A stretch of 64,000 bases of DNA from an uncultured bacterium (GTDB lineage: Bacteria > Patescibacteriota > JABMPQ01 > CAVVCK01), in assembly GCA_963746775.1 (NCBI GenBank), contig CAVVCK010000001.1, forward strand, positions 418,435 to 482,434, given 5' to 3'. The first letter of the stretch is position 1. Each line of letters begins with the position of its first letter. A model generated the notes under the pieces. The model was not told the origin of the DNA. It did not search any database and worked only from the letters and a program-made list of their open reading frames with translations. Shown in pieces: positions 17,700-64,000 of this stretch. Both the position numbers and the translations under genes were made by a program.

Positions 17700-17700
17700 T

Positions 17701-19403: not shown

Positions 19404-19774
19404 AATTAAATAAATTATTTATAAAATATCAACTTTGTTAGGTTTAATCTTTGGTTTCTCAGTCCCATAAACAGATGGTGGCATATTACTTACTATTCCT
19501 TTAAAAGTACCAAATGATAAGGAAATAATCAAATCGATATTATTTCATAACATTTTACCGTTTTGTTTTCCCTGGTAATAACAATCAAAATAATCAATAA
19601 AATTTAAATGATGTAAATAAAATATATCTTTTTTTGCTGATGTTGGATATTCGGAAAAACAGATAGAAACTATTTTACCAATTCCTAATTGTTTTTTATA
19701 GATTGTATTCATGATTTATATTATTTCAAAAATTGTCTAAATCTGTTAATATTTATCTACATTAATAAATTATT

Positions 19775-24710: not shown

Positions 24711-26243
24711 ATGAAATTTAATTTTTTATCTAAATTAAGCTTTAAATCGGTTGTATTTTTATTGTTTTCTTTGTCTTTTTTCCCTTTAATAACTATTAAA
24801 GCCAGTGATCTTCCCTCTAATATGGCTTATCCAGTTGATAATTGGAGAATTGTCCAAGATGGAGGAGAATTTGGTTATGAGAGAGAAGATAAAACATTCC
24901 ATTTGGGCGCAGATTGTCCTAAATCTGCCGGAGAAGCGGTATATGCTTTTATGGATGGTGTAGTAAAACACGTTGGAATTCATAGCCGTTTTGGTACTGT
25001 AATTTTAATAGAACACACTCTAAACGAAGAAAAAATAGTTTCCCTTTATGGCCATTTACGTGGAATTGACGTTGAAGTAACTGAAGGCCAGAAAGTAACC
25101 AAAGGTCAATTAATCGGACATATTGGCGCTTCAGGTCCTGAAAATGGCTATTGGTCGGAACATTTACATTTTGGAATTAGAAAAGGTGAATATGTTAATG
25201 TTAAATCACAGTGGGTTTATTGGGGCTTAGGGAGTGAAGAAGAGTTAGCTAATTGGTATAATCCTGCTATATTTTTAGGAGAAGGTTATAAAAATTTAAT
25301 AGACATTAAACAGACAAGTAGAATTGTTACCATTCCAGGGCTTGGAGGTAATACTCAAGCTAAATTATTTGATAAATATGGTAATAAAATAGAAAATTCT
25401 GATATTTATGCCTCTAGCCATAATTTTGATGGAGGAGGAGATGCTGTCTTCGGTAAAACTGACGGTAATGATAATGTTGAAGAAATTATTATTGGAGCTG
25501 GTGTAGGAGACAAGCCTTATGTTAAAATATATGATAAAAGTACTAAAGAACTCATTAGAAAATTTTTAGCCTATAATGAGAGTTTTATGGGTGGTGTTAG
25601 AGTAGCTTCTGGTGATTTAGATGGAGATGGAATAGATGAAATTATTACCGGAGCTGGTCCTGGCGGAGCACCTCATGTTAGAGTTTTTGATAATTTAGGA
25701 AATGTTATTTATGGAAAATTATTTCCTTTTGGTGAAAATCTAAAAACTGGTGCTGATGTTGCTACAGGAGATATAGATGGTGACGGTCGAGATGAAATTG
25801 TTGCCTCTCAAGGTCCAGGTAATGAACCAAAAGTAGCCATCATTAACGAAAATGGAAAAACTGAAAATGAATTCCTAGCTTATAATAAAAATTTCAAGGG
25901 CGGAGTAAGAGTAGCTACTGGTGATATTGACCGTGATAGCGAAGATGAAATTATAACTGGTGCTGGTCCCGGCGGCGGACCTCACGTGAGAATTTTTGAG
26001 GCTGATGGTAAACCGAGAGGTATAGATTTTTTCCCTTTTTCCCCTAGCTTCAGAGGTGGTGTAGATGTAAGTTCTATTGATTATGATCAAGACGGTAAAG
26101 ATGAAATAATTATGACACAAGCATCAGGAGGACAAGCTTGGGTCAAAATATATAGATATAATGATGAGAAAACTGTTTACGCAAATTTTTTAGCCTACCC
26201 GGAATATTTTGAAGGCGGAACTTATGTTTCAGGTTTAGAATAA
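24711..26243 (+). CDS. secreted M23 (LytM-type) metallopeptidase with C-terminal FG-GAP repeat beta-propeller
   Basis: Signal peptide. M23 motifs HLGADCP...YGHL...GHIGASG...HLHFGI. At least five repeats of the form GDxDGDGxDEIITGAGPGGxPHVRxF (FG-GAP). Confidence 0.75.
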   Translation: MKFNFLSKLSFKSVVFLLFSLSFFPLITIKASDLPSNMAYPVDNWRIVQDGGEFGYEREDKTFHLGADCPKSAGEAVYAFMDGVVKHVGIHSRFGTVILIEHTLNEEKIVSLYGHLRGIDVEVTEGQKVTKGQLIGHIGASGPENGYWSEHLHFGIRKGEYVNVKSQWVYWGLGSEEELANWYNPAIFLGEGYKNLIDIKQTSRIVTIPGLGGNTQAKLFDKYGNKIENSDIYASSHNFDGGGDAVFGKTDGNDNVEEIIIGAGVGDKPYVKIYDKSTKELIRKFLAYNESFMGGVRVASGDLDGDGIDEIITGAGPGGAPHVRVFDNLGNVIYGKLFPFGENLKTGADVATGDIDGDGRDEIVASQGPGNEPKVAIINENGKTENEFLAYNKNFKGGVRVATGDIDRDSEDEIITGAGPGGGPHVRIFEADGKPRGIDFFPFSPSFRGGVDVSSIDYDQDGKDEIIMTQASGGQAWVKIYRYNDEKTVYANFLAYPEYFEGGTYVSGLE

Positions 26244-26289
26244 TTCTTCTAAAAATTATTCTATAAAATAAAAATAAAAATCCATAAAA

Positions 26290-27537
26290 ATGAAAATAAA
26301 AATCTCTTTATTCCTACTTCTAAACTTACTAGCCATATTTACTTTAATAAATTTGACTTCAGCTTCAACCATTGATCAATTACAGCCTGCCGCTTATACA
26401 ATCAATGAAGATTTAACAGTAAATGGAACTGGTATCTTTAATTCCATTAAAATAGGTAAACAAAACGAAGGAGGTGTAACTTTCTTTAATGGTTCTATTG
26501 TTAACGCTACAACTACTGACGGAATCGATAATCCTATAGCTTTTGCCGATAATATAAGGATAGATGGCATTTTATTCAGAACAGAAGAAGGTGGTAATAA
26601 CCCTTTAAAAATAGGTGATACTCTGAAACCTAATAGTGATAATAGTTATGATATAGGACAAACAGACTCTCAGTGGAGAAATGCTTACTTCACCGGCACT
26701 GTTAGTGTTGGCAATTTACAAGGATCAAAAATAATTCATCCAGACAATCTAGCTACTTCTAATTCTGCTTCCTCAGGACAAGTTTTGTCATATAATTCCG
26801 AGGGTAATCTAGAATGGATTCCAGTCGCAGGAAATAGCGGTGATATAACTGCAGTTAGCGCCGGTTCTGGTTTATCGGGCGGTGGAACATCAGGTGATGT
26901 ATCTTTAAGCGTCTCTAGCACTGGCATAACTAATACTATGCTAGCAAACAATGCGGTAACTTCAGCTAAAATACAGGATGGCACCATAGCAGGAGCCGAT
27001 CTTACTTCTAGTTATCAATCAGGTTCTGCCTATGATAGTCGATTCGTAACCCAATCTTCTCCTTCCTGGAGTTCTAGAACTGGTTATGTAAGTGTGGCTC
27101 CCGGCGCCTTCACCCCTAAAAAGAACTATTATGATACTGATCCAGGAGGAAGTACTGATTATAATTATACACATCTAGGATATAAGTTAACTGGTACAAA
27201 TGTTGCCGCTGAAAAATATTATGCCCAAGTTGATCTCCCTCATGGATCTACTATAGCAAGATTAGATTTTTATTACGATGATGACGATGCTTCTAAACAA
27301 GCTAGGTTAGACTTATTAGCACATAGCAGAGTAGCTGCTGCACCTAGTTATTTAGCTACTGTACAATCACCAACAGGAACTGATAGTGATGGTAGCAGTT
27401 ATGACGATACTATTTTAGATGTTTTGAAAACTATTGATAATAGTAGTTATAGTTATTATTTAGAATTAGGATTATCCTCTACAAACCTAAGTTATTATGG
27501 TGCTACTATAACTTATACTTATACAGAACCTTATTAA
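26290..27537 (+). CDS. secreted fibre/adhesin-like protein, paralog 1 of 3
   Basis: Signal peptide. Conserved N-module (DLTVNGT...GGVTFFNG...RIDG...W..AYF.G.V.VGNL.G). Tail-fibre-like ITNTMLANNAVTSAKIQDGTIAGADL repeats. C-terminal ITYTYTEPY. Confidence 0.6.
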   Translation: MKIKISLFLLLNLLAIFTLINLTSASTIDQLQPAAYTINEDLTVNGTGIFNSIKIGKQNEGGVTFFNGSIVNATTTDGIDNPIAFADNIRIDGILFRTEEGGNNPLKIGDTLKPNSDNSYDIGQTDSQWRNAYFTGTVSVGNLQGSKIIHPDNLATSNSASSGQVLSYNSEGNLEWIPVAGNSGDITAVSAGSGLSGGGTSGDVSLSVSSTGITNTMLANNAVTSAKIQDGTIAGADLTSSYQSGSAYDSRFVTQSSPSWSSRTGYVSVAPGAFTPKKNYYDTDPGGSTDYNYTHLGYKLTGTNVAAEKYYAQVDLPHGSTIARLDFYYDDDDASKQARLDLLAHSRVAAAPSYLATVQSPTGTDSDGSSYDDTILDVLKTIDNSSYSYYLELGLSSTNLSYYGATITYTYTEPY

Positions 27538-27616
27538 TAAAATGATTTTTAAAATTATAAAATTTTTGTTATAATAAATAATAATTTAAAAAGACTCTGC
27601 CAGATAAAAAAACAAA

Positions 27617-28690
27617 ATGAAAAAACTATTGCCTTTCCTAACAATTTTAGGCATCTTCGCTTTGGTGGATCTAGCCTCTGCTTCCCCCGCTACCGATCTT
27701 CAACCAGCTCAAACTATTACCTACAACGAGGATCTAACAGTTAATGGTACTGCCAGGTTTGATTCTGCTTACATTGGTAAAACTACCGGCGAAGGCGGAG
27801 TAACTTTTTTCAATGGTACCATGATTAATAATTCAGCAGGTAGTGTTCCTCTGACTATGGGTGATGACTTAAGAGTAGATGGTATGATTTGGAGAGGGCC
27901 TTCTAAAGGAACAGCTGATGATATGCCTTTAAAGATAGCCGATACGCTAATGCCTGCTCTAAATAATGTTAACGATATAGGGACGGAAGATAATCAGTGG
28001 AAAGATGCCTATTTTGCTGGTGAGGTAACTGTAGGTAATTTGTTAGGAACAGGAGTAATTCATACTAATAACCTAGCTACTACTAATGCTGCTTCAACTA
28101 ATCAAGTACTATCCTATAACGGAGAGGCTTTAGAATGGGTAAATGGAGGTGATATTACCGGAATTACTGCTGGAACAGGATTATCTGGCGGAGGAACAAG
28201 TGGAGAGGTGACGTTGAGGGTGGATGATGATTATGTTGTAACCCAGTCTTCACCTGAATGGGATGCTAGAACAGGAGAAGTAAATGTTGCACCAGCCGAT
28301 TGCACAGGAGGAAGTAATTCATCTAATTTTACTCTAGATGCCACACGTTTCTATGCAGGATCTGTAGCATTTTTCTACTGCCCAGTACATTTACCTAACG
28401 GGGCTAATATTACTAGTTTTACCGCTAATGTGGAAGACACACACGCATCAAATTTGACAATAACATTACAAAGAAATCAATTGACAGATGGTTCTCCTGT
28501 TACTCAAAATCTCGCTTCTGTAAATTCAAGTTCTAGCTCTGGAAAAGTATTGTTAACAGATTCTACTATTGATAATGCCACAGTTGATAATGATTATACT
28601 TATACGATTTGGTTAAACTTCGGTGCTGCTTCTTCATTATTATCCTTTGATGGAGCAAAAATCACTTATACCTATACAGAACCTTATTAA
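27617..28690 (+). CDS. secreted fibre/adhesin-like protein, paralog 2 of 3
   Basis: Same N-module and C-terminal KITYTYTEPY as paralog 1, with a divergent middle region. The signal-peptide coding sequence is near-identical to that of paralog 3. Confidence 0.6.
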   Translation: MKKLLPFLTILGIFALVDLASASPATDLQPAQTITYNEDLTVNGTARFDSAYIGKTTGEGGVTFFNGTMINNSAGSVPLTMGDDLRVDGMIWRGPSKGTADDMPLKIADTLMPALNNVNDIGTEDNQWKDAYFAGEVTVGNLLGTGVIHTNNLATTNAASTNQVLSYNGEALEWVNGGDITGITAGTGLSGGGTSGEVTLRVDDDYVVTQSSPEWDARTGEVNVAPADCTGGSNSSNFTLDATRFYAGSVAFFYCPVHLPNGANITSFTANVEDTHASNLTITLQRNQLTDGSPVTQNLASVNSSSSSGKVLLTDSTIDNATVDNDYTYTIWLNFGAASSLLSFDGAKITYTYTEPY

Positions 28691-28720
28691 TAAAAATATA
28701 AAATAATATAAAAAAACAAA

Positions 28721-29602
28721 ATGAAAAAACTATTGCCTTTCCTAACAATTTTGGGCATCTTTGTCTTAGCTGGTTTTGCTTCTGCCTCTACCGCTAATGA
28801 ATTACAACCTGCCTCATCACTTGTTGTTGATAAAGAACTACGAGTGCTTGGTACCGCTAGAGCCTATTCAATTCGTATCGGTGCTCAGGGATATGGTGGT
28901 GTAACTTTTTTTAATGGAACAATTATCAACGAAACCACGGATACAGATACAGGAACAGAAATGCCAGTAACTTTTGGTGATGATGTCAGAATAGATGGAC
29001 GTATTTGGAGAGGAGAAAATGCCGGACCAGGATTAAATGATGATCGTGAGCTTATTGTTAATGATGATATGGAGATAACTGGTGATTTAACTGTTAACAA
29101 TTTAGTTGGTACAGGAGTAGTAAATAGTAATAATATATTAGATGGGACAATAACTACTGCTGATTTGGCTGATAGTTCAATTACTAGTGCTAAACTTACT
29201 GATGGAACTATAATGGGTAGTGATATTTCAAGTTCTGCTGATTTAAGTGTAGCTACTGGTACTTTTTCGGGAGATATAACTGCCCACGGAGATATTATTC
29301 AGGATTTAGCTGACCATGGAGCAGCGAAAGCGTTAACTGTTATACATGAGGATGGAACATGCCCAACTCAATGGACATATAATGATAGTACTATAACTTG
29401 TGCAAGCATTGGTGCTGGAAATTATACTGCAACATTCACTTTTAATGTTTATAATAGATATAACCAGTTAACTGGATTACAATCTGATCCGCATTTCCTT
29501 AATTATAATGTAAACCTAGCTACACCAAAAGTTCTCTATATACGTAGCTACGATATTGCAGGAAATCCAGAAAATTCTAATGTTGTAATTTCTGTTTTCT
29601 AA
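28721..29602 (+). CDS. secreted fibre/adhesin-like protein, paralog 3 of 3 (shorter, divergent C-terminus)
   Basis: MKKLLPFLTILGIFVLAGFASAS signal peptide. Conserved GGVTFFNGTIINE...RIDGRIWRG module. ILDGTITTADLADSSITSAKLTDGTIMGSDI repeats. Confidence 0.6.
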   Translation: MKKLLPFLTILGIFVLAGFASASTANELQPASSLVVDKELRVLGTARAYSIRIGAQGYGGVTFFNGTIINETTDTDTGTEMPVTFGDDVRIDGRIWRGENAGPGLNDDRELIVNDDMEITGDLTVNNLVGTGVVNSNNILDGTITTADLADSSITSAKLTDGTIMGSDISSSADLSVATGTFSGDITAHGDIIQDLADHGAAKALTVIHEDGTCPTQWTYNDSTITCASIGAGNYTATFTFNVYNRYNQLTGLQSDPHFLNYNVNLATPKVLYIRSYDIAGNPENSNVVISVF

Positions 29603-38045: not shown

Positions 38046-38128
38046 ATGGGCACGGAGAGATTCGAACTCTCAAGAGATAAACCCATACGCTCCTGAAACG
38101 TACGCGTATACCAGTTCCGCCACGTGCC
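38046..38128 (-). tRNA. tRNA-Leu(CAG), class II with long variable arm, CCA not encoded
   Basis: Reverse complement GGGCACGTGGCGGAACTGGTATACGCGTACGTTTCAGGAGCGTA...GAGAGTTCGAATCTCTCCGTGCCCA. 7-bp acceptor, anticodon loop TTCAGGA, T-loop TTCGAAT. Aligns with E. coli tRNA-Leu(CAG). Confidence 0.85.
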
Positions 38129-38262
38129 CAAAATTATAGATATAATTTATAAATTAATAAAAAAAACGTCAATTGAATTCCTAAATATACATTTTAAATT
38201 ATAATATATTTATCTGGTCAAATTTAGTAAGAATGCTATAAGCTACAAAAACAAAATCTCTA

Positions 38263-40549: not shown

Positions 40550-42217
40550 TTAATCTACTACTCTTCTAACTTCATCCAAGTCAGTAACTCCCTCAATAAT
40601 TTTTAAAAGTCCATCTTGTTCCATAGTCATCATACCTTGTTCAACAGCGGCATGAAATATATCCTGAGAAGATGCCCTCTGATTAATTAAAGCTTCTATT
40701 TTTTCATCAACTTGAAATATTTCATAGATGCCCATTCGACCAGAGTAACCTGTTTCATGGCAATCATGGCATCCCTTCTCCTTGGCTTTGTATATTTCTT
40801 TTAAGCCTTCTTGGGGATAAAATTTACCTAGTTTATTTTTTAATTCTTCAATTAATTTTTCTTCTGGCTTATATGATTCTCTACATTTTTTACATAATTT
40901 TCTAACTAATCTCTGGCCTATTACCACAGATAAAGCTGGTCCTATAGTATAAGGCCTAACTCCCATATTTACCAAACGCGGAATAGCCCCGGCAGCATCA
41001 TTAGTATGTAGGGTTGAAAATACTATATGCCCAGTTAGAGCTGCTTGAGCAGCAATATCAGCTGTCTCATAATCACGAATTTCACCTACCATTATTATAT
41101 CTGGGTCTTGCCTTAGAATAGACCGTAAACCGTTGGCAAAAGTCATATCTTTTTCCTCATCAATTTGTGTCTGCACTATTCCCTCAAGTCTATATTCTAT
41201 AGGATTTTCTAGGGTTATAATTTTAATTTCTGAAGATTTAACTTCATTTAAACAAGAGTATAGAGTAGTGGTTTTACCAGAACCAGTAGGACCTGTAGTT
41301 AAAATCAATCCTGTAGGTTTAGCTATTTCTTTTTTTAATAGTTTTAATTCTCTCTCTCTGAATCCTAAGTCATCTAACTTTAATTTCATCGCCCCTACCC
41401 CCAAAAGACGCATTACTATTGATTCACCATATCCAGAAGGTAGAACTGAAACCCTAATATCTATTTCAAGATCACCTGAAGTTATAGTAAATCTGCCATC
41501 TTGCGGAATATCGGATACATTTAACTTTAATCTTGCTAAATATTTGATTCTAGATAATATTTTTGGATAAGCTTCCTGGGCAATCTTAGTTATTTCTTGC
41601 AAAACACCGTCAATACGATAACGCAAAACAATATCTTCTTCTGCTGGCTCAACATGTATATCTGAAGAATTAGTTAAAAGCGCCCCAGCAAAAATAATAT
41701 CAATAACTTCTGTAGTTGATACTTTTCTAATTAAAGATCTTAAATCAGATACATTTTTTACCATTTTTCTAGCTTCTTCAAGCTCCTTTTCGCTTATTTC
41801 AACTTTCTCGATAGTTTTTTTAGAAACTAATACCTGACTATAAAAATTATAAGCATATTTAAAACTGACTTCGGATATTAGAAAAATGGTAATTTCATAT
41901 TTTTTTTCTTTTAAATCTACTATAACCTTTTCTGCTTTTTTATTATTAACATCGACTATACCAATTTTGAGAATATTATCTTTTTCATAAAAAGGTATAA
42001 TTTTAGCCAATATAGCATCTTTTTTGGAAACCAAAAGCAGAGCCTCTTTATCAATAGGAAAGCCTTTTAAATTAATATAAGGTATCCCTAGTGTCTGGGA
42101 TTTTTCAATAGTCAGTCTTTCTAGAGCATCTTCATTTAAATTGGTTAACTTTTCTTTTAATCTTTTTTCTCTTTCTTCTTCTAATTCTTCATTGGTAACT
42201 ATTTTTGTTTTTACCAT
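40550..42217 (-). CDS. pilB: type IV pilus / type II secretion assembly ATPase (GspE/PilB family)
   Basis: Walker A ILTTGPTGSGKTTT. Asp/His boxes VGEIRD...TGHIVFSTLHTNDAAGAI. C-terminal tetracysteine CKKC...CHDCHETG. Confidence 0.85.
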   Translation of the reverse strand: MVKTKIVTNEELEEEREKRLKEKLTNLNEDALERLTIEKSQTLGIPYINLKGFPIDKEALLLVSKKDAILAKIIPFYEKDNILKIGIVDVNNKKAEKVIVDLKEKKYEITIFLISEVSFKYAYNFYSQVLVSKKTIEKVEISEKELEEARKMVKNVSDLRSLIRKVSTTEVIDIIFAGALLTNSSDIHVEPAEEDIVLRYRIDGVLQEITKIAQEAYPKILSRIKYLARLKLNVSDIPQDGRFTITSGDLEIDIRVSVLPSGYGESIVMRLLGVGAMKLKLDDLGFRERELKLLKKEIAKPTGLILTTGPTGSGKTTTLYSCLNEVKSSEIKIITLENPIEYRLEGIVQTQIDEEKDMTFANGLRSILRQDPDIIMVGEIRDYETADIAAQAALTGHIVFSTLHTNDAAGAIPRLVNMGVRPYTIGPALSVVIGQRLVRKLCKKCRESYKPEEKLIEELKNKLGKFYPQEGLKEIYKAKEKGCHDCHETGYSGRMGIYEIFQVDEKIEALINQRASSQDIFHAAVEQGMMTMEQDGLLKIIEGVTDLDEVRRVVD

Positions 42218-46159: not shown

Positions 46160-46642
46160 ATGTCAGAAAAAAACAAAAAATCTTTTTTTAGTAAATTACT
46201 TAAAAATAAAAATACTGAGGAAAAATTAGAAGATACTCAGTTTAATAATACTAAAAATATTCAAACAAAAACTAAACAAGATCAAGAAGAATGGGCAGCA
46301 GATTATGAGGGACAATTGACTATTGATGTTTATCAAACAGATGAAGATATTATCATTAAGTCTACTATTGCTGGAGTAACTCCAGAAGATATCGATATTA
46401 CTATCGATAATGATATGGTTATCATAAAAGGTGAAAGAAAAAATTGTACTACTGCCCGCGAAGAAGATTATTATTATCAAGAATGTTATTGGGGATCTTT
46501 TTCAAGATCAGTAATTCTACCTTGCGATATTGAAGCAGATAAAATACAAGCAGAATTAAAAAATGGCATCCTAACTGTTACACTACCAAAAGCACATAAA
46601 TCAAAATCAAAAAAAATATCTGTTAAATCCCTAGAAGAATAA
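46160..46642 (+). CDS. Hsp20/alpha-crystallin family small heat-shock protein
   Basis: Alpha-crystallin domain LTIDVYQTDEDIIIKSTIAGV...GSFSRSVILPCDIEADKIQAELKNGILTVTLPK. Confidence 0.8.
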   Translation: MSEKNKKSFFSKLLKNKNTEEKLEDTQFNNTKNIQTKTKQDQEEWAADYEGQLTIDVYQTDEDIIIKSTIAGVTPEDIDITIDNDMVIIKGERKNCTTAREEDYYYQECYWGSFSRSVILPCDIEADKIQAELKNGILTVTLPKAHKSKSKKISVKSLEE

Positions 46643-46670: not shown

Positions 46671-46703
46671 AAAAAATTCCAACAAATAGTTGGAATTTTT
46701 TAT
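46671..46703. terminator. bidirectional intrinsic terminator AATTCCAAC-AAATA-GTTGGAATT with flanking A6 and T5
   Basis: 9-bp stem between convergent genes hsp20 (+) and the first pilin-like gene (-). Confidence 0.75.
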
Positions 46704-46726: not shown

Positions 46727-47143
46727 TTAGGCAACAAATAAAGCCTGAATTACATAACGACTGATAGCAAAGGCAATAGCGATAATAACTACACCAATAA
46801 TCGCATATAACATGATTTTCTTACCTGTTTCTATTCTCTCCTCATTACCTATTGAAGTTGCATAAACAACACCACCATAAACAAATAAAGCAACTAAAAC
46901 AACACCTAATATTCCTACTACCCAACTAATAATTCTAGCAACAAAATCTGGAAGATTTACATCTTGTGCTAAACCCGTATCTTGTACATCATCTAAAGTA
47001 GCTGCTGGATCACCTGCTGTTACGCCAGCACCATCACCAGGAGCAGCCAATACTGGAGTAAAAAGAGTAAACATTAAAGTTAAAGCAAATAAAAAACTGC
47101 CTATAACCATGTATAATTTAGCCATTTTTTTCATTCCATTCAC
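46727..47143 (-). CDS. VirB2/TrbC-like (T4SS-type) pilin-like protein, paralog 1 of 6
   Basis: Signal peptide. Conserved C-terminal module IISWVVGILGVVLVALFVYGGVVYATSIGNEERIETGKKIMLYAIIGVVIIAIAF (helix-loop-helix). Confidence 0.55.
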   Translation of the reverse strand: MNGMKKMAKLYMVIGSFLFALTLMFTLFTPVLAAPGDGAGVTAGDPAATLDDVQDTGLAQDVNLPDFVARIISWVVGILGVVLVALFVYGGVVYATSIGNEERIETGKKIMLYAIIGVVIIAIAFAISRYVIQALFVA

Positions 47144-47251
47144 CTCCTTTCAATATATTTTTATCATTTAATAAAATAAATGCCTTATTTTGTAAGTATA
47201 GCACAATTTATCATATAAATACAGACTTTCTCTAAATTATTCAGGTAAAAT

Positions 47252-47683
47252 TTATCTGCTGCCACTACTACCACTACTGCCACCACCATTATTTTGTGAC
47301 CAGTCACTTTGGTCAGTAAACAAGCCTTCAATAACATAATTAGTAATTGCAAAAGATAGGGCGACTACAACAATTCCTATAATAGCATAAGTTAAAACTT
47401 TTTTAGCCTTATCTATTTGCTCACCACCAGCTGAAGTAGCATATAACACACCTCCGTAAATTAATAAAACTAGAAATATAATCCCTATAATACCTACTAT
47501 TATATTTATTATCCTAATTATCGTTCCTGACAAACTTTGATTAGCTGAAAAAAAAGAATTATCTGAACTATTGTCAAAATTTTCTAATCCAAATTGAGCC
47601 AGTACTTGATTAGAAATTAATAAAAAACATGCTAAAAAAAACATAAAAATTAGACAAAATAAAACTGCTTTTTTTAACATCAA
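47252..47683 (-). CDS. VirB2/TrbC-like pilin-like protein, paralog 2 of 6, with Gly/Ser-rich C-terminal tail
   Basis: IYGGVLYATSAGGEQIDKAKKVLTYAIIGIVVVALSF module followed by NGGGSSGSSGSR. Confidence 0.55.
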   Translation of the reverse strand: MMLKKAVLFCLIFMFFLACFLLISNQVLAQFGLENFDNSSDNSFFSANQSLSGTIIRIINIIVGIIGIIFLVLLIYGGVLYATSAGGEQIDKAKKVLTYAIIGIVVVALSFAITNYVIEGLFTDQSDWSQNNGGGSSGSSGSR

Positions 47684-47708
47684 TTTTTAAATAATTTATA
47701 TTTACAAT

Positions 47709-48560
47709 TTAGGATCCTGAAGAGCCACTTCCAAGACTACCGCCCCCGCTACCAGTAAGGGCGCTAACTATAAACTGTGTAATAGCAAACGATAAAGCTA
47801 CTATTATAATTCCTATAATAGCATAAGTTAATACTTTTTTCGCTTTTCCAGCCTGTTCTTCGTTGCCAGCTGATGTCATATACATTACTCCGCCATAAAT
47901 AAGCATTACTAAAAGAATAATTCCTACCGCACCTGTAATATAACTAATAATTCTTACTATAACTGTAGCTATGTCATCCCGAGGAAGCTCACTAGGCACA
48001 GAATCTAATCCATAATTACTAGACGAACTTGGATTATTATTATTACGATTACTGCCTCCGCAGATATTATTAATACATTCTAAACCACCTGAGCAATCCT
48101 CATTATCTGTACAAGAAGCCCCACCACCAGTCCTATTAACACATGTACCACTTATACATTCAAGACTGCCTGAACAATCATTATCATCTGTGCAGATAGA
48201 ACCGCCGCCATTAATAACATCTGCGGGATCATTACCAGTTGGGCGATCACATGTTCCACTTCTGCAAACTAAACCCTCTGTACAATCAGAATTAATATTA
48301 CACGAATCTCCAAGTTCTGCTCTTAGTCTTGCTTCTTCGTCACTAGGTCCCTCACATATACCTGTAGTTGGGGGATCAACATCATCATTTGCTCCTACAC
48401 ATGTTTCTCTATTAGCTCTTTCACAATCTGAATCATAAGCACATTCATCACCTACTCTAGCATTTACGTCTCTAGTATTAAAATAAAAGACCAATCCCCA
48501 CGCAAGAATTACTCCAAAAAATAAAGGTAAAATTTTAAAAATTTGTTTTAAATTTTTCAT
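47709..48560 (-). CDS. VirB2/TrbC-like pilin-like protein, paralog 3 of 6, with large Cys-rich repeat ectodomain and Gly/Ser tail
   Basis: Repeats of C..D.DCSG.LEC..G.C. Then IYGGVMYMTSAGNEEQAGKAKKVLTYAIIGIIIVALSF. Ends GSGGGSLGSGSSGS. Confidence 0.55.
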   Translation of the reverse strand: MKNLKQIFKILPLFFGVILAWGLVFYFNTRDVNARVGDECAYDSDCERANRETCVGANDDVDPPTTGICEGPSDEEARLRAELGDSCNINSDCTEGLVCRSGTCDRPTGNDPADVINGGGSICTDDNDCSGSLECISGTCVNRTGGGASCTDNEDCSGGLECINNICGGSNRNNNNPSSSSNYGLDSVPSELPRDDIATVIVRIISYITGAVGIILLVMLIYGGVMYMTSAGNEEQAGKAKKVLTYAIIGIIIVALSFAITQFIVSALTGSGGGSLGSGSSGS

Positions 48561-48586
48561 TTTTTTATAATTTTATGTTTTCATAA

Positions 48587-48958
48587 TTATCCACTGATAA
48601 TATTAATAACCGTATTTACAATCACATAAGATAAAATAGAAACTATTAATCCCATAACAGAATACCCTAAAACTTTTTTTGCTTTATTTGATTGTTCTTC
48701 ATTGCCCGCTGAAGTCAAATATAATATTCCACCATAAACAAAGGAAGCAACTGCCAAAATTCCAATTAAACCTATAACAGCGCTTAGTACTTTGGCAACT
48801 AGTTCTGGAATTGTATTAACACCAGTTAAAGGATTAGTAATTCCCGTTCCGCCGCTACTAGCCTGTACCATATTGATTGTAAAAAAAATAAAAATACCAC
48901 TAATTAAAAATAGTATCTTAATACAAATAAGTTTAGACTTATAAATTGAAAATTTCAT
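48587..48958 (-). CDS. VirB2/TrbC-like pilin-like protein, paralog 4 of 6
   Basis: VYGGILYLTSAGNEEQSNKAKKVLGYSVMGLIVSILSY. Confidence 0.55.
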   Translation of the reverse strand: MKFSIYKSKLICIKILFLISGIFIFFTINMVQASSGGTGITNPLTGVNTIPELVAKVLSAVIGLIGILAVASFVYGGILYLTSAGNEEQSNKAKKVLGYSVMGLIVSILSYVIVNTVINIISG

Positions 48959-48961
48959 TTA

Positions 48962-49342
48962 TTATCCTCCAATAGCATTGATTAATGTATTAATAATTAC
49001 ATAAGATAAAATAGTAACTGCTAAACCTATTAGAGCATAAGTCATAGTTTTCTTGGCCTTACCAGCTTGTTCTTCGTTGCCTCCTGAAGTAAAATATAAA
49101 ATTCCAGCATAAACCATAGCCGCCACAGCCGCTAATCCAACAATAGCCGTAATAAAACGTACAACAGCTGCCGCTAATTCTGTTGGACTACTTATATTAA
49201 TAGGGCTTTGCAAACTGACTACATCCCCTGAACCTCCAGAAGAAGCCTGAACATTATTTATTTCAAATATTAAAAAAAACATTAAACATATATTCAAAAC
49301 CATAAAAACAGCTAAATATTTTGATAACATATTCATATTCAA
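48962..49342 (-). CDS. VirB2/TrbC-like pilin-like protein, paralog 5 of 6
   Basis: VYAGILYFTSGGNEEQAGKAKKTMTYALIGLAVTILSY. Confidence 0.55.
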   Translation of the reverse strand: MNMNMLSKYLAVFMVLNICLMFFLIFEINNVQASSGGSGDVVSLQSPINISSPTELAAAVVRFITAIVGLAAVAAMVYAGILYFTSGGNEEQAGKAKKTMTYALIGLAVTILSYVIINTLINAIGG

Positions 49343-49362
49343 TAAATATTAGTACATAGAAA

Positions 49363-50256
49363 TTAACAACTAGGATTCCACCAAGATCCACCCCCAGCAT
49401 TAAATCCGGTTATATTAAGAATAGTATTAATAATTACCCAAGCAGCAAAAACAACTACAGTACCCAGTACTGCAGCTGTTATTATCTTCTTGGCGGCTGC
49501 TATCGTTTCTTCAGACCCTCCAGACCTGACATAAGTAAATCCACCCAGAGTTATCACTGCTACCGCTACAATGCCTACTATTTCAAAAGCAAATCTAAAA
49601 ACGTTACCAATAACTTTTAAAATATCACAGGTATTACATTTACCAAAAGCCATGCATTCAGTAGTAAGTCCTTCTGTAAAAATCCCTCGCTCAGCTGAAT
49701 TAGCCGCATCTATCTGTCTTTGCTCCCAAGCACTATAATCTATACCGCCGCCGCTTCTTCCTGTAGATGGCACGGTATCATCAGGTGTGATTGTAACATC
49801 ACTTGGTAAAACGCATCTTCCATTTTGACATAATTTTCCACTACCACACGAAGTATCACCAGAGCAAGGAATACAATGATGGCTAGCACATATTTCACCA
49901 TTACAATCTTCATTACTGCTACAATTGCTTGTATCTGGGGTTGGAGCTGTATGTTCTGGCTCACCAGCCAGGCAAGTTTTCCCAGATATCCCTGATCCAA
50001 TATCATGACATTGAAATCCAGAAGGACAATCTGCATCAGCATTACATAATGCTACACAAGTTCCTGCACCATTATCTCCCCCTGATGGAATACACCTTTC
50101 ATTACTACCACATGGAGTACTATCACTACATGCACTCCCAGGAGTTGCCTTTGTTATTTTAATATTATATACAAAAAATAATCCTAAAAAAATAATAATA
50201 AATATTAAAATGGGAAAAATGTATAATAAATATTTACTAATACGTTTTATAGTCAT
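49363..50256 (-). CDS. VirB2/TrbC-like pilin-like protein, paralog 6 of 6, with Cys-rich ectodomain
   Basis: N-terminal TM. About 150 aa with ~24 Cys in C..DxDC..G..C spacing. Then ITLGGFTYVRSGGSEETIAAAKKIITAAVLGTVVVFAAW. Confidence 0.5.
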   Translation of the reverse strand: MTIKRISKYLLYIFPILIFIIIFLGLFFVYNIKITKATPGSACSDSTPCGSNERCIPSGGDNGAGTCVALCNADADCPSGFQCHDIGSGISGKTCLAGEPEHTAPTPDTSNCSSNEDCNGEICASHHCIPCSGDTSCGSGKLCQNGRCVLPSDVTITPDDTVPSTGRSGGGIDYSAWEQRQIDAANSAERGIFTEGLTTECMAFGKCNTCDILKVIGNVFRFAFEIVGIVAVAVITLGGFTYVRSGGSEETIAAAKKIITAAVLGTVVVFAAWVIINTILNITGFNAGGGSWWNPSC

Positions 50257-50295: not shown

Positions 50296-51663
50296 TTATT
50301 TAACTTTCATTTGAGCTGTCACTTGATCTACAGCTTCATTCAAACCTTCTTCCGGATCTTTTTCCCCCAGAGCTACGGATTCTATTAAATTAGAAAATAT
50401 TTCCTCAATTGCGTCCGAATTCGCTTGATACCAGCTCGTAGCAGTAAGCGCTTGTTTAGAAAATATTTTTAATAAGGGGTCGTTTAATTGATTATTAACA
50501 ACATCCTTACGAGAAGCTGGTCGACCTGTCATTTCTGAATAATTTTGTATATTCTCTTGTTTAGCTAAATAATTTAAAAAATTCCAGGCTTCCCGTTGAT
50601 AAGGAGAAGTTCTAGAAACTACTTCTGCCCAGTAGTTAGCATAATTCACTTCTTTAGAACTTTCTTCTATTTGTGGCATAAAAGTAATACCATAATTTAA
50701 ATTAGGCGCTTTGGATTTAATAACCTCATCCTCATAAGAATAACTAAAGGCCATAGATGCCTTTTCTTCAATAAAGGCATCAATAGAATTATGTAGAGCA
50801 GGATTCCAAGTATAAACTGATTTCTTAGGATTGGCAAAATCAGTATAAAAAATTAAAGCATCAAGTCCTGGAGTATATACTTCCCCACCGGATGTTTTGG
50901 CTTTACTATTAAACATTGCTTTTTTATAACCTTCATCAGTCATTTGTGTCCCATTTTGTAACATTAATAGATATAAAATATCAACTGCCCGAGATACATT
51001 CTTAGAGGTACCCAGAGCTCCTCCAGCTATATCTATATTACCATAACTATCAACTTTATTTAATATCTTTACATCATCTACAAATTCCGTCCAATTAGCT
51101 GGCGGCGCAGTTATCCCGGCTGTATTAAAATAGTCTTTATTATAATATAGAGCTAGGGTATCTACACTGAAAGGTATGCCATAAATGTTTCCTTCTGTAT
51201 CCTGAAAATCACGCAAGGCAGTATCTACAAAAGTTTCTCCATAGACATCCGGTGCCATAATATCAGTTGGCATAGGAGCTAATTTGTCTTTGTGTTTTGG
51301 TAGCCAAGTATTATGTATAGACCAGATATCAGGTCCTTTTCCAGCTGCTAGAGCGCTTGTTATTTCATTTTCATATTCACCATAAGTCAATTTACGATAA
51401 TTTATTTTTATATTAGGGTAAGCTTTTTCATAGGCTTTAATTTCTTCTCTAAAAACATCCTGGCTATCCCAAAGTCGCCACCAATTAATTTCTATTTTTT
51501 CACTGGCAGAAGTTGTTCCACCCGAACCATCGCTAGTGCCGTTACTACCATTATCAGTAGTTTGCTTACAACCCAAACCTCCAAAAATCAAAGTTGTAAT
51601 CAATGAAAAAATTAGAAAAACACACTTTTTATTTCTAGATTTTACTTGAAATAAATTTTTCAT
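50296..51663 (-). CDS. extracellular solute-binding lipoprotein (ABC transporter family 1, sugar-type)
   Basis: Lipobox GGLGC. EKIEINWWRLWDSQ...YPNIKINY... typical of MalE-like SBPs. 455 aa. Confidence 0.7.
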   Translation of the reverse strand: MKNLFQVKSRNKKCVFLIFSLITTLIFGGLGCKQTTDNGSNGTSDGSGGTTSASEKIEINWWRLWDSQDVFREEIKAYEKAYPNIKINYRKLTYGEYENEITSALAAGKGPDIWSIHNTWLPKHKDKLAPMPTDIMAPDVYGETFVDTALRDFQDTEGNIYGIPFSVDTLALYYNKDYFNTAGITAPPANWTEFVDDVKILNKVDSYGNIDIAGGALGTSKNVSRAVDILYLLMLQNGTQMTDEGYKKAMFNSKAKTSGGEVYTPGLDALIFYTDFANPKKSVYTWNPALHNSIDAFIEEKASMAFSYSYEDEVIKSKAPNLNYGITFMPQIEESSKEVNYANYWAEVVSRTSPYQREAWNFLNYLAKQENIQNYSEMTGRPASRKDVVNNQLNDPLLKIFSKQALTATSWYQANSDAIEEIFSNLIESVALGEKDPEEGLNEAVDQVTAQMKVK

Positions 51664-51680: not shown

Positions 51681-52553
51681 TTATTTTATTATTTCTTTTA
51701 AATATTTTTTTAAACCTGCATTTAACTCCTTATCTTTTAAAGCAAAATCAATATTTGCCTTTAAATATTCTAACTTATTGCCAGTATCATAATATTTAGA
51801 ATTTTTTATTTCACAGGCATAAACTGCTCTTTTTTTCATTAAAGCATTAATAGCATCAACTAGCCACAATTCATTGTCCTTGCCAATTTTAGTATTTTCC
51901 AAATAATCAAATATTTCTGGATTAAAAATATACGCTCCATGTACTGCTAAATTAGAAGGAGCTTTATTGGGATTTGGTTTTTCAATAATTTTTTTAATTT
52001 CATATACTCCCTTTTCTACTTCATTGTAATCAGCAATACCATATTTAGAAACTGCTGATTTATTAGGTATTCTAACACCAGAAATAACACAATCTTCATA
52101 TTTATCATAAACATCCATCATCTGTTTTAATCTAGGTGGTTTAGCATAAATAAATTCATCACCCCAAAGCACAGCAAAGGGCTCATTGCCAATAACAGAT
52201 TTAGCATTTAAAACAGGTGTTCCATTGCCATACGGGCCTTTTTGTCTTATATAAATAAAATTAGCCATACTAGCTACTTTTCTTATTTCTTCTAGCTGTT
52301 TAAATTTACCTGCTTCTTCTAGTCTTTTTTCCAATTCAAATGGATAATCAAAGTGATCCTCAATGCTTCGTTTATGCCAACCGGTAATAATAATTATATC
52401 TTCAATCCCTGACGCTACCGCTTCTTCAACAACATATTGAATTATCGGTTTATCAACTACTGGCAACATTTCTTTTGGTTGAGCTTTGGTAGCAGGCAGA
52501 AATCTTGTTCCCATGCCTGCTGCTGGTATTACAACTTTTTTAATCTTGGACAT
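51681..52553 (-). CDS. galU: UTP--glucose-1-phosphate uridylyltransferase
   Basis: KKVVIPAAGMGTRFLPATKAQPKEMLPVVDKPIIQYVVEEA. Confidence 0.85.
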   Translation of the reverse strand: MSKIKKVVIPAAGMGTRFLPATKAQPKEMLPVVDKPIIQYVVEEAVASGIEDIIIITGWHKRSIEDHFDYPFELEKRLEEAGKFKQLEEIRKVASMANFIYIRQKGPYGNGTPVLNAKSVIGNEPFAVLWGDEFIYAKPPRLKQMMDVYDKYEDCVISGVRIPNKSAVSKYGIADYNEVEKGVYEIKKIIEKPNPNKAPSNLAVHGAYIFNPEIFDYLENTKIGKDNELWLVDAINALMKKRAVYACEIKNSKYYDTGNKLEYLKANIDFALKDKELNAGLKKYLKEIIK

Positions 52554-52610: not shown

Positions 52611-53144
52611 TTACCTTAGATATAGAAAAATAGGAGTGCTTTTTCTGTCATTATTTTTTAAAACAATTTTTTTGTCTACTATCCAGTCTAGAAAAGAAAA
52701 TGCATACGATAATACTTTGGCTCCTTTTTTTAATTCTTTGGTTAATTTACTACTCAGTTTTTTATTAATTTCAGGCATTAAATAACAAAATACGATATCA
52801 GCTTTCGACAAATCGGCCTTAAAAAAATCTTTACAAAACACTTGGGCACTACTTTTATGAAAATAAATATTTAATTTAGCAATTAAAAAAGGTATTGGGG
52901 ATAATTCAAATCCGTAAGCTTTTACTCTATATTTTCTTTCAACCAAAACTAACAAATCACCTATTCCGCAACCTAAATCATATAATACATCATTTTCTTT
53001 AATACCAGCCACTTCTAATATTTTATTTTTAATCTTTTCGGGGCTTCTAATAAAAGGTACTCTGGTTATAAAAAAAGATAATATGGTCGATAAATATAGT
53101 AAAAGCAATATAAAGACAATAAACAAAAATAAATAATATACCAT
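52611..53144 (-). CDS. membrane-anchored class I SAM-dependent methyltransferase
   Basis: N-terminal TM. Motif I VLYDLGCGIGDL. Confidence 0.6.
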   Translation of the reverse strand: MVYYLFLFIVFILLLLYLSTILSFFITRVPFIRSPEKIKNKILEVAGIKENDVLYDLGCGIGDLLVLVERKYRVKAYGFELSPIPFLIAKLNIYFHKSSAQVFCKDFFKADLSKADIVFCYLMPEINKKLSSKLTKELKKGAKVLSYAFSFLDWIVDKKIVLKNNDRKSTPIFLYLR

Positions 53145-53240
53145 ATTTATCCAATATAATTATTCTAAAAATCTTTATAATATTATCACATAAAAACAAA
53201 AAAACCAACCCTCAGGCTGGCTTATTTTAAAGCTCATTAT

Positions 53241-53355
53241 GTTGGCGACGACCTACTTTCTCCTACCATAATAGTAGGGTAGCATCGGCGCTGGTAAGTT
53301 TTACTTCTGAGTTCGAGATGAGATCAGGTAGTTCCTTACCGCAAGAGCCACCAAC
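53241..53355 (-). rRNA. rrf: 5S ribosomal RNA
   Basis: Reverse complement GTTGGTGGCTCTTGCGGTAAGGAACTACCTGATCTCATCTCGAACTCAGAAGTAAAAC...CAGCGCCGATGCTACCC matches the 5S consensus. Flanked by the processing stem GCTCATTATGTTGG / CCAACATAATGAGC. Confidence 0.85.
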
Positions 53356-53479
53356 ATAATGAGCTCTAATTATCTTTAACAATTATAAAACGCTAGCCAA
53401 TTAGTACGTTGAAATGTTGAAAATGTTGGAATCAAAATGATTTCAACGGTTTCAACGATTACAACGAATTTTAATACTA

Positions 53480-56305
<2,826 letters not shown>

Positions 56306-61463: not shown

Positions 61464-64000
61464 TTAATCATGATATCGCACCGTCATCGTATAAGCAAAA
61501 CCAGCCCGGTCATCTGCTCCATTACTGGCCTGCACCGCTAATAAATTTTCTCCTCCCTGCATAAAAGTGGCCAAACCAAAGGTATGGGGATTATCACCTG
61601 ATCCCGCCTCCGGCACTTCACCGAAATAATGGCCATTAACATAGCCAATAAATCCCCAGGCTTCATTATCGGCTGACATTCGAATGGCTGCATCTGTTAT
61701 AATCACCCCAGATGGTATAGAAAATCTTTTCCTAAATAATGTGGTCTCATTAGGATCAACATGGCTGTCGCCCCAGAGCCATTCACAATTAGAACAAGGT
61801 CTTGAAATCGAATCGGGTGGCAGATTAGCATTATAAACTGCTCCATTCCAGGTACTATCGTTAAAGCTAGGATCCCACCAATTAGGCATAGGAATCTGAC
61901 CTCTGGTATATGGCCAATCTGGCACAATTGAAGTTCTATAAGTAGAATCTATTTGACTATGGAAGAAACTCGCCAATTGAACACTTAGAGACCAATTTTG
62001 TGTAGCCACATTACCAGCCATATCATAAATCGTCAGTTGAATATTATAAGTATGATTATCGCCACCCGGCGCTATCATCGCTTCTGCCGGAACTCATTCC
62101 TGGACCTCCCTCTCCTCTAATTCTATATTCTACTCGGCCATCAGTTATAGTTGCCAGCCGCGTCAAGCCATCAACTCGCAATGATACTCGGCTAGCATCA
62201 ATACCAGAACCTGCATCTTCATAATTAGCCCAAATAAGTTCCTCTTCATGATATATAGTGCCGGTTGGTCCAAAGCCGGTAATAATTGGACTCTGCGTAT
62301 CAATATTTATTGAAGTTTCATTTGAATAACTGGAAGTATTTGAAGCCGCATCGCGCGCTCTTGCTCTGTAAGACCACCCTCCATCTGCTAATCCCGATCC
62401 AAATTGATAAGAAAATGCACCACTATCATTAGTGTTAGTATAATAATGATACCCCCAAGCGCCTCCTCCTTGTTTTTTCTCTATTAAAACCCTTGAATTT
62501 CTTTCCGCTGTACCAGAAATAATCGGCCTATTATTGTTAGTTATTGAACCGTCCGAAGGTGAATTAATATGAGGAGCAGCCGGCGTAGTAATATCATTAA
62601 AAGTTACCTGCACATTGCCCGCAGCTGTCCCTAAAACGCTTTGCGCAGTAAGATGAGCTAAAGTTTGCGCCTCCCCGTAGCCGTTCCAGACAGATGATTT
62701 TAATTGAAATTCAATAAGCCCATTTTGGGTTAAAAGTTGGATGCCGGCTCTAGCCGCATTTTGGTCCGGCGTAATTATTGTTCCTAAATCAGTGCTAATG
62801 GTAATTTCCTGATTATTAGCCACAATATTGCCTGTTCTATCATAAATCACACCAGAATTAATTGTTGAAGTATAACTGCCATTAGCATCTAAGCTAATGG
62901 GCACAGCTGTCAAATTAATGGCACCCGCTGGATTGCCAGGTATCAAATTAATATTTCGAGAAACATTTTTAACAGACGCGCAATCTAAATCTGTGGCGGT
63001 AATTTCTATTTGCCCATCGCCAATTTTAGTAGCTGGTGTATAGACGGCCGTATATACACCATTGCCATGATCGGCCACGGCTGAAAGGCTGCCTGTCTCT
63101 CCTTCTATGCCATTATTATCAGTCATAGCAATTATTACCGGCTCACCAGCTAATTTAACACCAGTATTTCCTTCATGATCCAGCACCCTCGCTTCTAAAT
63201 TAACCATCTCTATCCCTTCAGCCGAAACTGTATCAGAAGAAGCTGTGAGAGTAATAGTATTAGCGGAAGTAGGTGTATAACCATTTACAATATTAGAAAT
63301 ACTAGACCAATTAGACACTTCATCAGAGGTTTTAATAGCTACATAATATGTTTCTTTTGGCTCTAAATTATCTAAAACAAGAGCTTGATGCGTCCCGGCT
63401 GCCTCAGGTAGAGGAGAATCAATTACTTGGGTAGCACTGTTAAAATTTTCTTCTGTAATAGCTGTTTTGGCATAGCGAATATCATAATCCTTGACCGTGC
63501 CAATATTCTCATCATCACCCACTGTGGTCCATTCTAAATTTAGAGAATGATAAGTTATTTCAGTAATAGCTAAATCAGAAATAGATAATGGCGCGATAGT
63601 ATCTAGGAAATATTTATAACTACCTGAGGTATTAGAATTGCCAGCGGCATCAAAAGCTTCTGCTTCTATAATATTTTCACCCTCCATTAAATTAATATTA
63701 GCTATCGCCCATTTGCCTTCAAGATCTGCCTGCCCGGCATAGTTTTTATGAATATCTTTTATATTAGTTAAAATAATTCTGCTCTCTGCTTCAGCTGTGC
63801 CACTAAAAGTTGCTTGCACACCTTCTAATTCTTCATTTTCATCAAAAGAAGCGTTAAAACTGACATTCCGCTCTGGAACCAAAATTACTGGTGGATCAGG
63901 AGCGGTAATATCAACTGTCGTTTGCGTATCCGACTCATCCGAATACTCTTCTAAATTTTCTGCCAAATCTTTGACTCTTGATCTAAAATAATAAGTAAGA
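61464..64000 (-). CDS. large secreted surface protein with Ig-like/fibronectin type III domains; 5' end beyond window; internal frameshift near 62056-62100
   Basis: FN3 segment SISDLAITEITYHSLNLEWTT...YDIRYAKT...ETYYVAIKTSD and Ig-like segments. The frame is open to the window end. ORFs 62056-63966 and 61464-62078 are consecutive parts in different frames. Confidence 0.6.

Follow-up and report, generated by a model that had tools for sequence, protein, structure and literature searches.

The recent survey of Patescibacteria by Quinonero-Coronel et al. (2025, PMC12102498) revealed 441 arrays of 2 to 11 pilins in 383 assemblies and VirB2-like pilins together with VirB4 in 1,948 assemblies, with a pilin near virB4 in only 1,135; VirB5 and PrgB adhesins were missing from these bacteria. 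Arrays of 4 to 6 small proteins with Sec signals had been reported earlier beside type IV secretion system (T4SS) genes in Saccharibacteria and other members of the candidate phyla radiation (CPR) (McLean et al. 2020, PMC7427843), and in Southlakia epibionticum ML1 the six PF18895 pilins SEML1_0014-0019 are essential by transposon sequencing (Tn-seq) together with VirB4, PrgI, and VirB6 (Wang et al. 2023, PMC10633639). The 2025 FEMS review points to such arrays as what may be the first pilus of a monoderm T4SS, and the function of the Patescibacteria T4SS has been described as completely unknown (PMC11665869). Here, we analyzed an array of six pilin genes on the minus strand at 46727-50256 of a 64,000-nucleotide stretch from an uncultured patescibacterium (contig CAVVCK010000001.1, positions 418,435 to 482,434), the whole of which is called the window below. 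The array is a further case of this already published kind. We propose, with moderate confidence, that it is a chromosomal array of six VirB2-like T4SS pilins, co-transcribed with galU and the gene of a solute-binding protein (SBP), whose products are assembled by a T4SS for host contact.

Like the arrays of PMC12102498, the one in the window is recognized by the PF18895 profile, falls in the size range of 2 to 11, and shows low identity among its members (~25% there versus 30 to 59% over the shared module here, with pairwise BLASTP E values of 1e-10 to 6e-35). With the arrays of Southlakia ML1 and Nanosynbacter lyticus TM7x it shares six tandem, divergent PF18895 genes with signal peptides and a convergent Hsp20 gene. 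However, the Saccharibacteria arrays abut VirB4, PrgI, and VirB6, whereas the window has galU and the SBP gene on that side and no T4SS ATPase within 64 kb; moreover, their members look mostly short from the module positions, whereas two of the six in the window carry Cys-rich ectodomains of ~160 to 175 aa. Farther away, VirB2 of Agrobacterium, TrbC of RP4, and F-type TraA resemble the window proteins in having a signal peptide, two hydrophobic helices, a short charged loop, and (as predicted for the window) both termini outside. These systems are diderm and have a demonstrated pilus. Unlike them, the window pilins give no evidence for cyclisation or N- or C-terminal processing, and their loop differs in carrying the conserved acidic-basic motif GNEE..KAKK. 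To our knowledge, no large ectodomain is known on a classical VirB2.

The six pilins and their kinship with VirB2/TrbC

The six consecutive open reading frames (ORFs) fill 46727-50256, where the preliminary description, made from the sequence without database searches, had placed them. They are named p6 to p1 in transcription order. p6 (49363-50256, 297 aa) and p3 (47709-48560, 283 aa) are modular VirB2-like pilins, and the minimal ones are p5 (48962-49342, 126 aa as ORF), p4 (48587-48958, 123 aa), p2 (47252-47683, 143 aa, with a Gly/Ser C-terminal tail), and p1 (46727-47143, 138 aa as ORF), all on the minus strand. Gene calls on the identical public contig and Shine-Dalgarno sequences make later starts probable for p1 (ATG at 47134, with AGGAGG just 5' of it; 135 aa), p2 (47680, 142 aa), and p5 (49330, 122 aa).

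The proteins share a C-terminal module of ~75 residues with the invariant columns G, Y, S, G, E, KK, and G (G..Y..S.G..E...KK). The motif Y(G/A)G..Y.TS.GNEE...KAKK had been quoted correctly in the preliminary description, and the succession of hydrophobic helix, motif loop, and hydrophobic helix that it reported is real in all six. Each protein has three hydrophobic segments. The first is an N-terminal signal followed by an AxA-type site (VQA↓SS, VLA↓AP, VLA↓QF, VNA↓RV, TKA↓TP), and the last two are long helices around the loop TS.GNEE...KAKK. Structure prediction, proposed at the time as a check, gave with AlphaFold2 a signal helix and a two-helix hairpin with a 5-residue loop. In p4 the helices span residues 3-34 (signal), 50-81, and 87-122 (mean predicted local distance difference test score, pLDDT, 80), and in p3 four small beta-hairpin units of the disulfide type precede helices 196-229 and 234-270 (pLDDT 75). 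Homology and the arrangement in relatives suggest that both hairpin termini lie outside, with the conserved loop facing the cytoplasm.

The profile search placed all six proteins above the gathering score of the Pfam family PF18895, T4SS_pilin (26.6 bits, a ~70-residue module), with 39.5 bits for p6, 43.1 for p5, 40.0 for p4, 45.9 for p3, 38.1 for p2, and 42.7 for p1, the matches running from profile positions 2-9 through 71. This family is large, an exhaustive profile search giving 69,666 representatives at 50% identity. The TrbC profile PF04956 matched p3 below threshold (E 7e-4) over the same residues as PF18895, and eight database homologues passed both PF18895 and PF04956 on the same module. 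Moreover, hhalign comparison of the six window modules with seven annotated virB2/trbC genes retrieved from plasmids gave a score of 24.6 (P 6.5e-4) with an alignment co-linear over 64 columns (helix 1, loop, and helix 2), and a 226-sequence CPR module profile reached 29.1 (probability 68%, P 4.7e-5). None of 60 column shuffles reached 24.6 (9.5 +/- 1.8, maximum 15.5), reversed profiles scored 11 to 13, and swapped helices scored 18, whereas the hhalign probability of the VirB2/TrbC match was only 27 to 68%. Altogether, the remote homology of the modules to VirB2/TrbC appears well supported by these comparisons but not proven, and the VirB2/TrbC-like reading of the preliminary description gains support from PF18895, from the dual-family homologues, and from hhalign scores above the controls.

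A further relative, and the nearest among curated families other than those of Pfam, is the Mbov_0395/ICE_MMCAP2_0565 family (NCBIfam NF045849, "pilin-like conjugal transfer protein") of Mycoplasma integrative and conjugative elements (ICEs), which, like the window proteins, has a two-helix module (80 residues). Matches to NF045849 were found in five of the six window proteins (E 4e-6 to 5e-11), with p3 at 42.1 bits above the cut-off of 40 and the others at 14.6 to 37.4; five of the six thus stay below the cut-off. In contrast to the window array, this family is single copy on mobile elements, and it belongs to conjugation of the MPF-FATA type in wall-less monoderms, a class thought ancestral to the Patescibacteria T4SS. 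The match suggests that VirB2-like proteins are present in some monoderm MPF-FATA systems, such as the Mycoplasma ICE.

Two other assignments of the proteins were considered. Being small and having hydrophobic segments, with a PilB-type ATPase gene 4.5 kb away, they could be pilins of a type IV pilus or type II secretion system, or phage holins. However, all six match PF18895, the class III signal motif G↓F(M)-T/S-L-x-E is absent from all six, in agreement with the preliminary description, and the hydrophobic hairpin is C-terminal; as for holins, which that description had named as an example of a family whose match would speak against pilins, no PHROG match was found at E <= 0.01 and the neighbours are housekeeping genes. 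We regard this assignment as extremely improbable. Hardly more credible is a reading of the six as soluble effector or toxin subunits that Sec exports and a T4SS releases, by analogy with pertussis toxin and Ptl. McLean et al. (2020, PMC7427843) did liken TM7x-type arrays to Ptx subunits, but the two long hydrophobic helices per mature protein and the pilin-profile matches argue that these proteins would remain membrane-bound rather than soluble; the arrays were subsequently reassigned to the VirB2-like pilins (PMC12102498; 2025 FEMS review).

Variable exposed domains on a conserved hairpin

The preliminary description had singled out the members of 283 and 297 aa for their Cys-rich repeat ectodomains, and 16 and 20 Cys were indeed counted in them. 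In p3, the signal peptide is followed by four 4-Cys mini-domains with the spacing C-x5-C-x5-C-x4-C, a linker, the hairpin at residues 196-270, and a Gly/Ser tail; this protein is also above threshold for the EB module and DUF7107. In p6, a signal peptide and a Cys-rich ectodomain precede the helical hairpin at ~211-285, and the 20 Cys comprise four 4-Cys units, a CxxxxxCxxC cluster just before helix 1, and one C-terminal Cys. A hidden Markov model (HMM) of the 18-residue 4-Cys repeat scored only the window, a duplicate contig, one related locus (L002), and one giant protein, a query of this length being too short.

Such extended members recur in the 57 related genome loci that were compared using an HMM of the module (L059 and L061/L062 were taken separately). 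These loci contain 235 pilin-module ORFs, with at least 2 in 49 of 57 loci, at least 4 in 31, and a maximum of 12. Minimal pilins of <=160 aa account for 124 of the 235 ORFs, while 28 have N-terminal extensions (24 of these Cys-rich) and 51 have C-terminal extensions of >60 aa (44 of these Cys-rich). Of the 35 loci that have three or more pilin genes, 18 contain at least one extended Cys-rich member. The occurrence of extensions on either end of the hairpin fits a topology with both termini outside the cell, as in VirB2.

The comparison with the close relative L059 shows how these domains change. All six window genes have positional orthologues there, with hairpins 71 to 80% identical and flanking genes 59 to 89% identical. 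The orthologue of p5 (126 aa) is a 205-aa protein (r205) with a 9-Cys ectodomain, that of p2 (143 aa) is a 312-aa protein (r312) with a 13-Cys C-terminal extension, and that of p3, which has 16 Cys, is a 203-aa protein with 4 Cys; the orthologue of p6 (r301) is 57% identical over its full length and keeps the Cys pattern. The alignments provide clear evidence that exposed parts are swapped, gained, or lost between orthologues while the hairpin is kept.

Two described systems offer partial parallels. In the host-associated Bartonella and Anaplasma phagocytophilum, VirB2 genes have likewise been amplified in tandem and have diverged, which has been taken to diversify the exposed surface (work cited in PMC12102498); these arrays differ from the window in belonging to diderm pathogens of eukaryotic cells and in having paralogues without added domains. 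The combination of a conserved polymerisation or anchor module with a variable adhesive domain, beside plain pilins, has its counterpart in a different class of pili. Modular type IV pilins such as PilB and PilC of Streptococcus sanguinis carry adhesin modules. Unlike the window proteins, these have an unrelated fold, with a class III signal and a single N-terminal helix, and use another assembly machine.

The hairpin also occurs in much larger proteins. About 15 loci (L011, L013-L017, L021, L022, L024, L026, L030-L032, L034, and L035; e.g., L014:7712-9742 and 9842-20219, and L035:9845-18592) carry giant ORF pairs, the first of ~660 to 860 aa and the second of 2,300 to 3,500 aa or more. In each giant, a signal peptide and a PF18895 module (residues ~55-145) come first, followed by TIG/IPT, Big_5, and Laminin_G_3 domains with up to 179 Cys, and genes for signal peptidase I (S26) and HisRS border the pairs in 17 to 18 loci. 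The T4SS-pilin hairpin appears to anchor giant adhesin-like proteins. Moreover, pilin polyproteins concatenate 2 to 17 modules per polypeptide. Examples from the set P0150-P0296 are P0177 (1,775 aa, 17 modules) and P0187 (1,147 aa, 11 modules), and polyproteins also occur in L043, L045, L046, L049, L051, and L052, especially in Gracilibacteria and Saccharibacteria loci.

The giants and polyproteins bring in the main rival of our proposal, namely, that the hairpin, derived from VirB2, serves broadly to anchor or display proteins at the membrane and that the six proteins are ordinary integral membrane or surface proteins (variable receptors or adhesins), never polymerised and independent of any T4SS. 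In its favor, the hairpin anchors adhesin-like proteins of 660 to 3,500 aa that lie by signal peptidase I and HisRS genes rather than T4SS genes, up to 17 modules can be concatenated, the window array is remote from any VirB4 gene, and no pilus has been observed in Patescibacteria. On the other hand, the GNEE...KAKK loop is strictly conserved across very divergent lineages, which suggests a specific interaction at the cytoplasmic face. In Saccharibacteria and Berkelbacteria, moreover, arrays lie inside VirB4 clusters, and in Southlakia array and T4SS are essential together. We consider pure anchoring rather unlikely, although it deserves more weight than any other alternative.

Operon partners and neighbouring genes

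The genes upstream of p6 run in the same direction. The SBP gene (50296-51663, minus strand) lies 39 nt upstream of p6 and encodes a carbohydrate-type solute-binding lipoprotein (SBP_bac_1, 455 aa, lipobox GLGC, matching PF01547 and PF13416, with only distant NCBIfam matches). It is preceded at 17 nt by galU, encoding UTP-glucose-1-phosphate uridylyltransferase (51681-52553, minus strand; TIGR01099 343.7 bits, cut-off 326.8), and the first gene of the unit encodes a membrane-anchored class I S-adenosylmethionine-dependent methyltransferase (52611-53144, minus strand; DOT1/Methyltransf matches). The gaps from the methyltransferase through galU and SBP to the six pilins measure 3 to 108 nt. One terminator-like hairpin stands directly after the 5S rRNA gene (53223-53202), and another (46671-46701, minus strand; 13-bp stem, then a T run) lies 26 nt past the p1 stop and is common to the array and the convergent Hsp20 gene. 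Because of the short gaps and these two hairpins, a single transcription unit from the methyltransferase to p1 is plausible. Terminator-like sites in the region are not commoner than in shuffled sequence (4 versus 3.5), nor are promoter-like ones; all that is informative is where the two hairpins lie. The operon with SBP lipoprotein, galU, and methyltransferase of the preliminary description is backed by gene spacing and conserved synteny.

This synteny concerns above all the SBP gene. In ~22 loci, a homologue on the same strand immediately precedes the first pilin gene (gap -1 to 305 nt, identity 26 to 60%), and galU precedes the SBP-array unit in 17 loci. The close relative L059 and the Moranbacteria loci L061/L062 independently confirm the linkage between SBP and array, and over all ~25 loci with this adjacency the SBP identity is 26 to 76% and no ABC permease adjoins. 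The galU/SBP/array order was noted in the window, L003-L010, L025, L028, L029, L037, L038, L041, L053-L056, L059, L061, and L062, which represent many lineages of Patescibacteria. Pilin arrays have in the SBP lipoprotein gene a conserved partner within the operon. In contrast to this, the window methyltransferase is not conserved at the other compared loci, although a different methyltransferase precedes the SBP gene in Moranbacteria (L061:7761-8318). The tie between methyltransferase and pilin array is therefore weak. The enzyme has one N-terminal transmembrane helix and a sub-threshold similarity to an archaeal protein-lysine N-methyltransferase, and that it might act on the Lys-rich pilin loop is pure speculation.

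The recurrence of the SBP gene raises another possibility, in which array and SBP form part of an import route for nutrients or macromolecules, a T4SS-like conduit taking up host material and the SBP capturing host carbohydrate at its mouth. The ~25 loci without an adjoining permease gene are in line with it, and an uptake role for the Saccharibacteria T4SS has been proposed in a perspective (PMC11665869). This is, however, a conjecture, and the SBP could simply be a co-regulated surface protein. Moreover, the Saccharibacteria arrays, the only experimentally essential ones, mostly have no SBP gene, and none is found in SEML1_0006-0020. Import is in our view improbable.

On its other side, the array faces the gene of the small heat-shock protein Hsp20 (46160-46642, plus strand; PF00011). 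A convergent Hsp20 gene directly downstream of the array was also found in L059 and in six Saccharibacteria loci (L039, L043, L044, L046, L049, and L050), and in Southlakia ML1 SEML1_0020 (Hsp20, scored essential) follows the pilins SEML1_0014-0019. At other loci (L003-L006, L018, L023, L025, L028, and L029), the convergent genes downstream of the arrays encode proteins of 507 to 630 aa with 8 to 9 transmembrane segments, one family being DUF2079 and another having no Pfam match, with a GT2 glycosyltransferase alongside. Several pilins have Gly/Ser-rich exposed tails. The GT2 and the 8-9-segment membrane proteins, taken with galU, hint at extracytoplasmic glycosylation of surface or pilin proteins.

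The preliminary description had also remarked that the array is richer in GC than its surroundings. This holds for the two Cys-rich genes only (0.374 and 0.379 versus 0.327 +/- 0.036 for 30 other genes), whereas GC at third codon positions (GC3) is not raised in any of the six (0.158 to 0.189, at or below the window mean of 0.219 +/- 0.037). A horizontal origin was rejected because GC3 is not raised, and the higher GC follows from a Gly/Cys/Ala/Pro-rich composition rather than foreign origin.

The window itself is low in GC (~32%) and chromosomal, with 23S and 5S rRNA, ilv genes, ValRS, TsaD, P-type ATPases, and a PilB-type ATPase. The 23S and 5S rRNA genes are adjacent (53240-56299, minus strand) with no 16S rRNA gene in the window, and the only tRNA gene in the 64 kb is Leu-CAG (38046-38130). 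The rRNA genes appear unlinked, as is often reported for small-genome bacteria. The PilB/T2SSE-type ATPase gene (40550-42217, minus strand), ~4.5 kb from the array, is followed by two genes for membrane proteins of 369 and 184 aa without Pfam family and with faint similarity to Mycoplasma membrane proteins; the segment 38647-42217 (minus strand) may be a divergent type IV pilus module. At 24711-29602 (plus strand), an M23 peptidase with FG-GAP repeats (24711-26243) precedes three tandem secreted paralogs (415, 357, and 293 aa) that share the N-terminal pattern ...LQPA...NEDLTVNGTA.F.S..IGK...GGVTFFNGT...; two of them match no Pfam family, and the third resembles bactofilin only weakly and below threshold. 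These paralogs are another surface-protein array. Finally, a large surface protein with Big_13, Invasin_D3, and fn3 domains, a candidate adhesin, is encoded at the window edge (62056-63966, minus strand).

Secretion machinery and proposed role

The organism fits the small-genome episymbiont envisaged in the preliminary description, since the 57 related loci are contigs of Patescibacteria-type metagenome-assembled genomes (a few otherwise labelled) and the source contig measures 547,309 bp. The lineages comprise Magasanik-, Falkow-, Uhr-, Doudna-, Buchanan-, Berkel-, Moran-, Sacchari-, and Gracilibacteria and Peribacteria. Among the other labels, L002 is given as Pedobacter sp., yet has a typical Patescibacteria pilin array and neighbours, and L008, L011, L015, L020, L023, L024, L032-L034, and L048 are labelled uncultured Gammaproteobacteria with Patescibacteria-type arrays. 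The Bacteroidota and Gammaproteobacteria labels on such contigs probably reflect mis-binning or mislabelling.

T4SS machinery near the array, anticipated from a host-contact apparatus, was not found within the 64-kb window, which was searched with an HMM built from nine CPR VirB4 sequences and by scanning large ORFs for T4SS domains. The array lies >10 kb from any VirB4 gene in the window and in its closest relatives (L003-L010 and L059). The CPR VirB4 profile had >8,000 matches, saturated by Saccharibacteria, and none from the source contig was among the 120 matches listed. In contrast, nine Saccharibacteria and Berkelbacteria loci show the same arrays adjoining VirB4, PrgI, and a large membrane protein. 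In the Berkelbacteria locus L041, prgI-x-virB4-x-SBP and five pilins follow each other on one strand, a contiguity that physically ties the SBP-pilin unit to the T4SS.

We propose the following model. Each product is predicted to be exported by Sec, with probable cleavage by signal peptidase I at its AxA site, and the mature protein would sit in the membrane as a helical hairpin with its ends outside and the loop TS.GNEE...KAKK in the cytoplasm. A VirB4/VirB6/PrgI-type machine encoded elsewhere in the genome would extract the hairpins and assemble them into a surface filament or an envelope-spanning stalk contacting the host cell. The four minimal members could be the structural subunits, with a short variable exposed N terminus, whereas p3 and p6 would show their disulfide-rich mini-domains on the outer face and probably bind the host at low abundance, as adhesins or minor subunits, in place of VirB5 or PrgB adhesins; the view of the Cys-rich members as tip adhesins, already put forward in the preliminary description, is an inference. 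The exposed parts would evolve by domain gain, loss, and swapping on a conserved hairpin. As for the SBP, candidate roles are sensing or capture of a host-derived sugar at the contact site, or assistance in assembly. The T4SS link in this model is drawn because arrays adjoin VirB4 and PrgI in the nine loci above and because the Hsp20 boundary is shared with Southlakia. The adhesin part is drawn because the giants join the hairpin to TIG, Big_5, and Laminin_G_3 domains and because ectodomains turn over between the window and L059.

Several observations weigh against this model. The window proteins stay below the PF04956 gathering score (best 20.2 versus 27.9 bits). Foldseek comparison of both predicted models with the PDB gave no match at E < 0.1 and none of significance to the solved VirB2/TraA pilins, the best pilin being the archaeal conjugation pilus 8dfu (E 3.6, template-modelling score 0.62, target-normalised). 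The lists were dominated by generic helical hairpins, with a weak Cys-rich match to Dkk4 at E 0.1, and the hairpin fold is too simple for Foldseek to discriminate. A profile search of PDB sequences gave just one chance match (PsaL, E 0.5). Furthermore, no VirB4, PrgI, or VirB6 gene is present in the window, no T4SS pilus has been seen in any Patescibacterium and reviews treat it as a possibility only (2025 FEMS review; PMC11665869), and a tightly packed helical filament of the VirB2 type would hardly accommodate major subunits with ectodomains of 150 to 3,400 aa.

A broader and more tentative idea, which we regard as somewhat doubtful, is that in most Patescibacteria outside Saccharibacteria the VirB2-like hairpin is a universal and exchangeable platform on which host-binding domains are displayed, anything from 4-Cys mini-domains (those of p3 and p6) to 3,500-aa adhesins, working with a dedicated carbohydrate-type SBP lipoprotein and a UDP-glucose supply as a functional unit separable from the VirB4 cluster. 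The main text of PMC12102498 is silent on a galU-SBP linkage, on fusions to ectodomains, on giant proteins with a pilin module, and on polyproteins of several modules; likewise, a galU-SBP-pilin linkage, modular or Cys-rich T4SS pilins, and giant pilin-anchored proteins were not found in the searchable literature, which is not proof of novelty.

The array alone adds one more example to a known kind, and the leads come from the comparison around it. Epibiotic growth requires the Patescibacteria T4SS in the sole species tested, and three leads on the function of this system emerge, namely, the SBP partner with galU, the swapping of ectodomains, and the reuse of the hairpin for giant adhesins. 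The match to NF045849, for its part, bears on the origin of the Patescibacteria pilins. Ectodomain swapping with a kept hairpin is the signature expected of host-recognition modules. If the broader display-platform idea is true, the SBP would belong to the core of the Patescibacteria T4SS/pilin system, as a partner overlooked until now, and the adhesins missing from this secretion system, which has neither VirB5 nor PrgB, would be the modular T4SS pilins.

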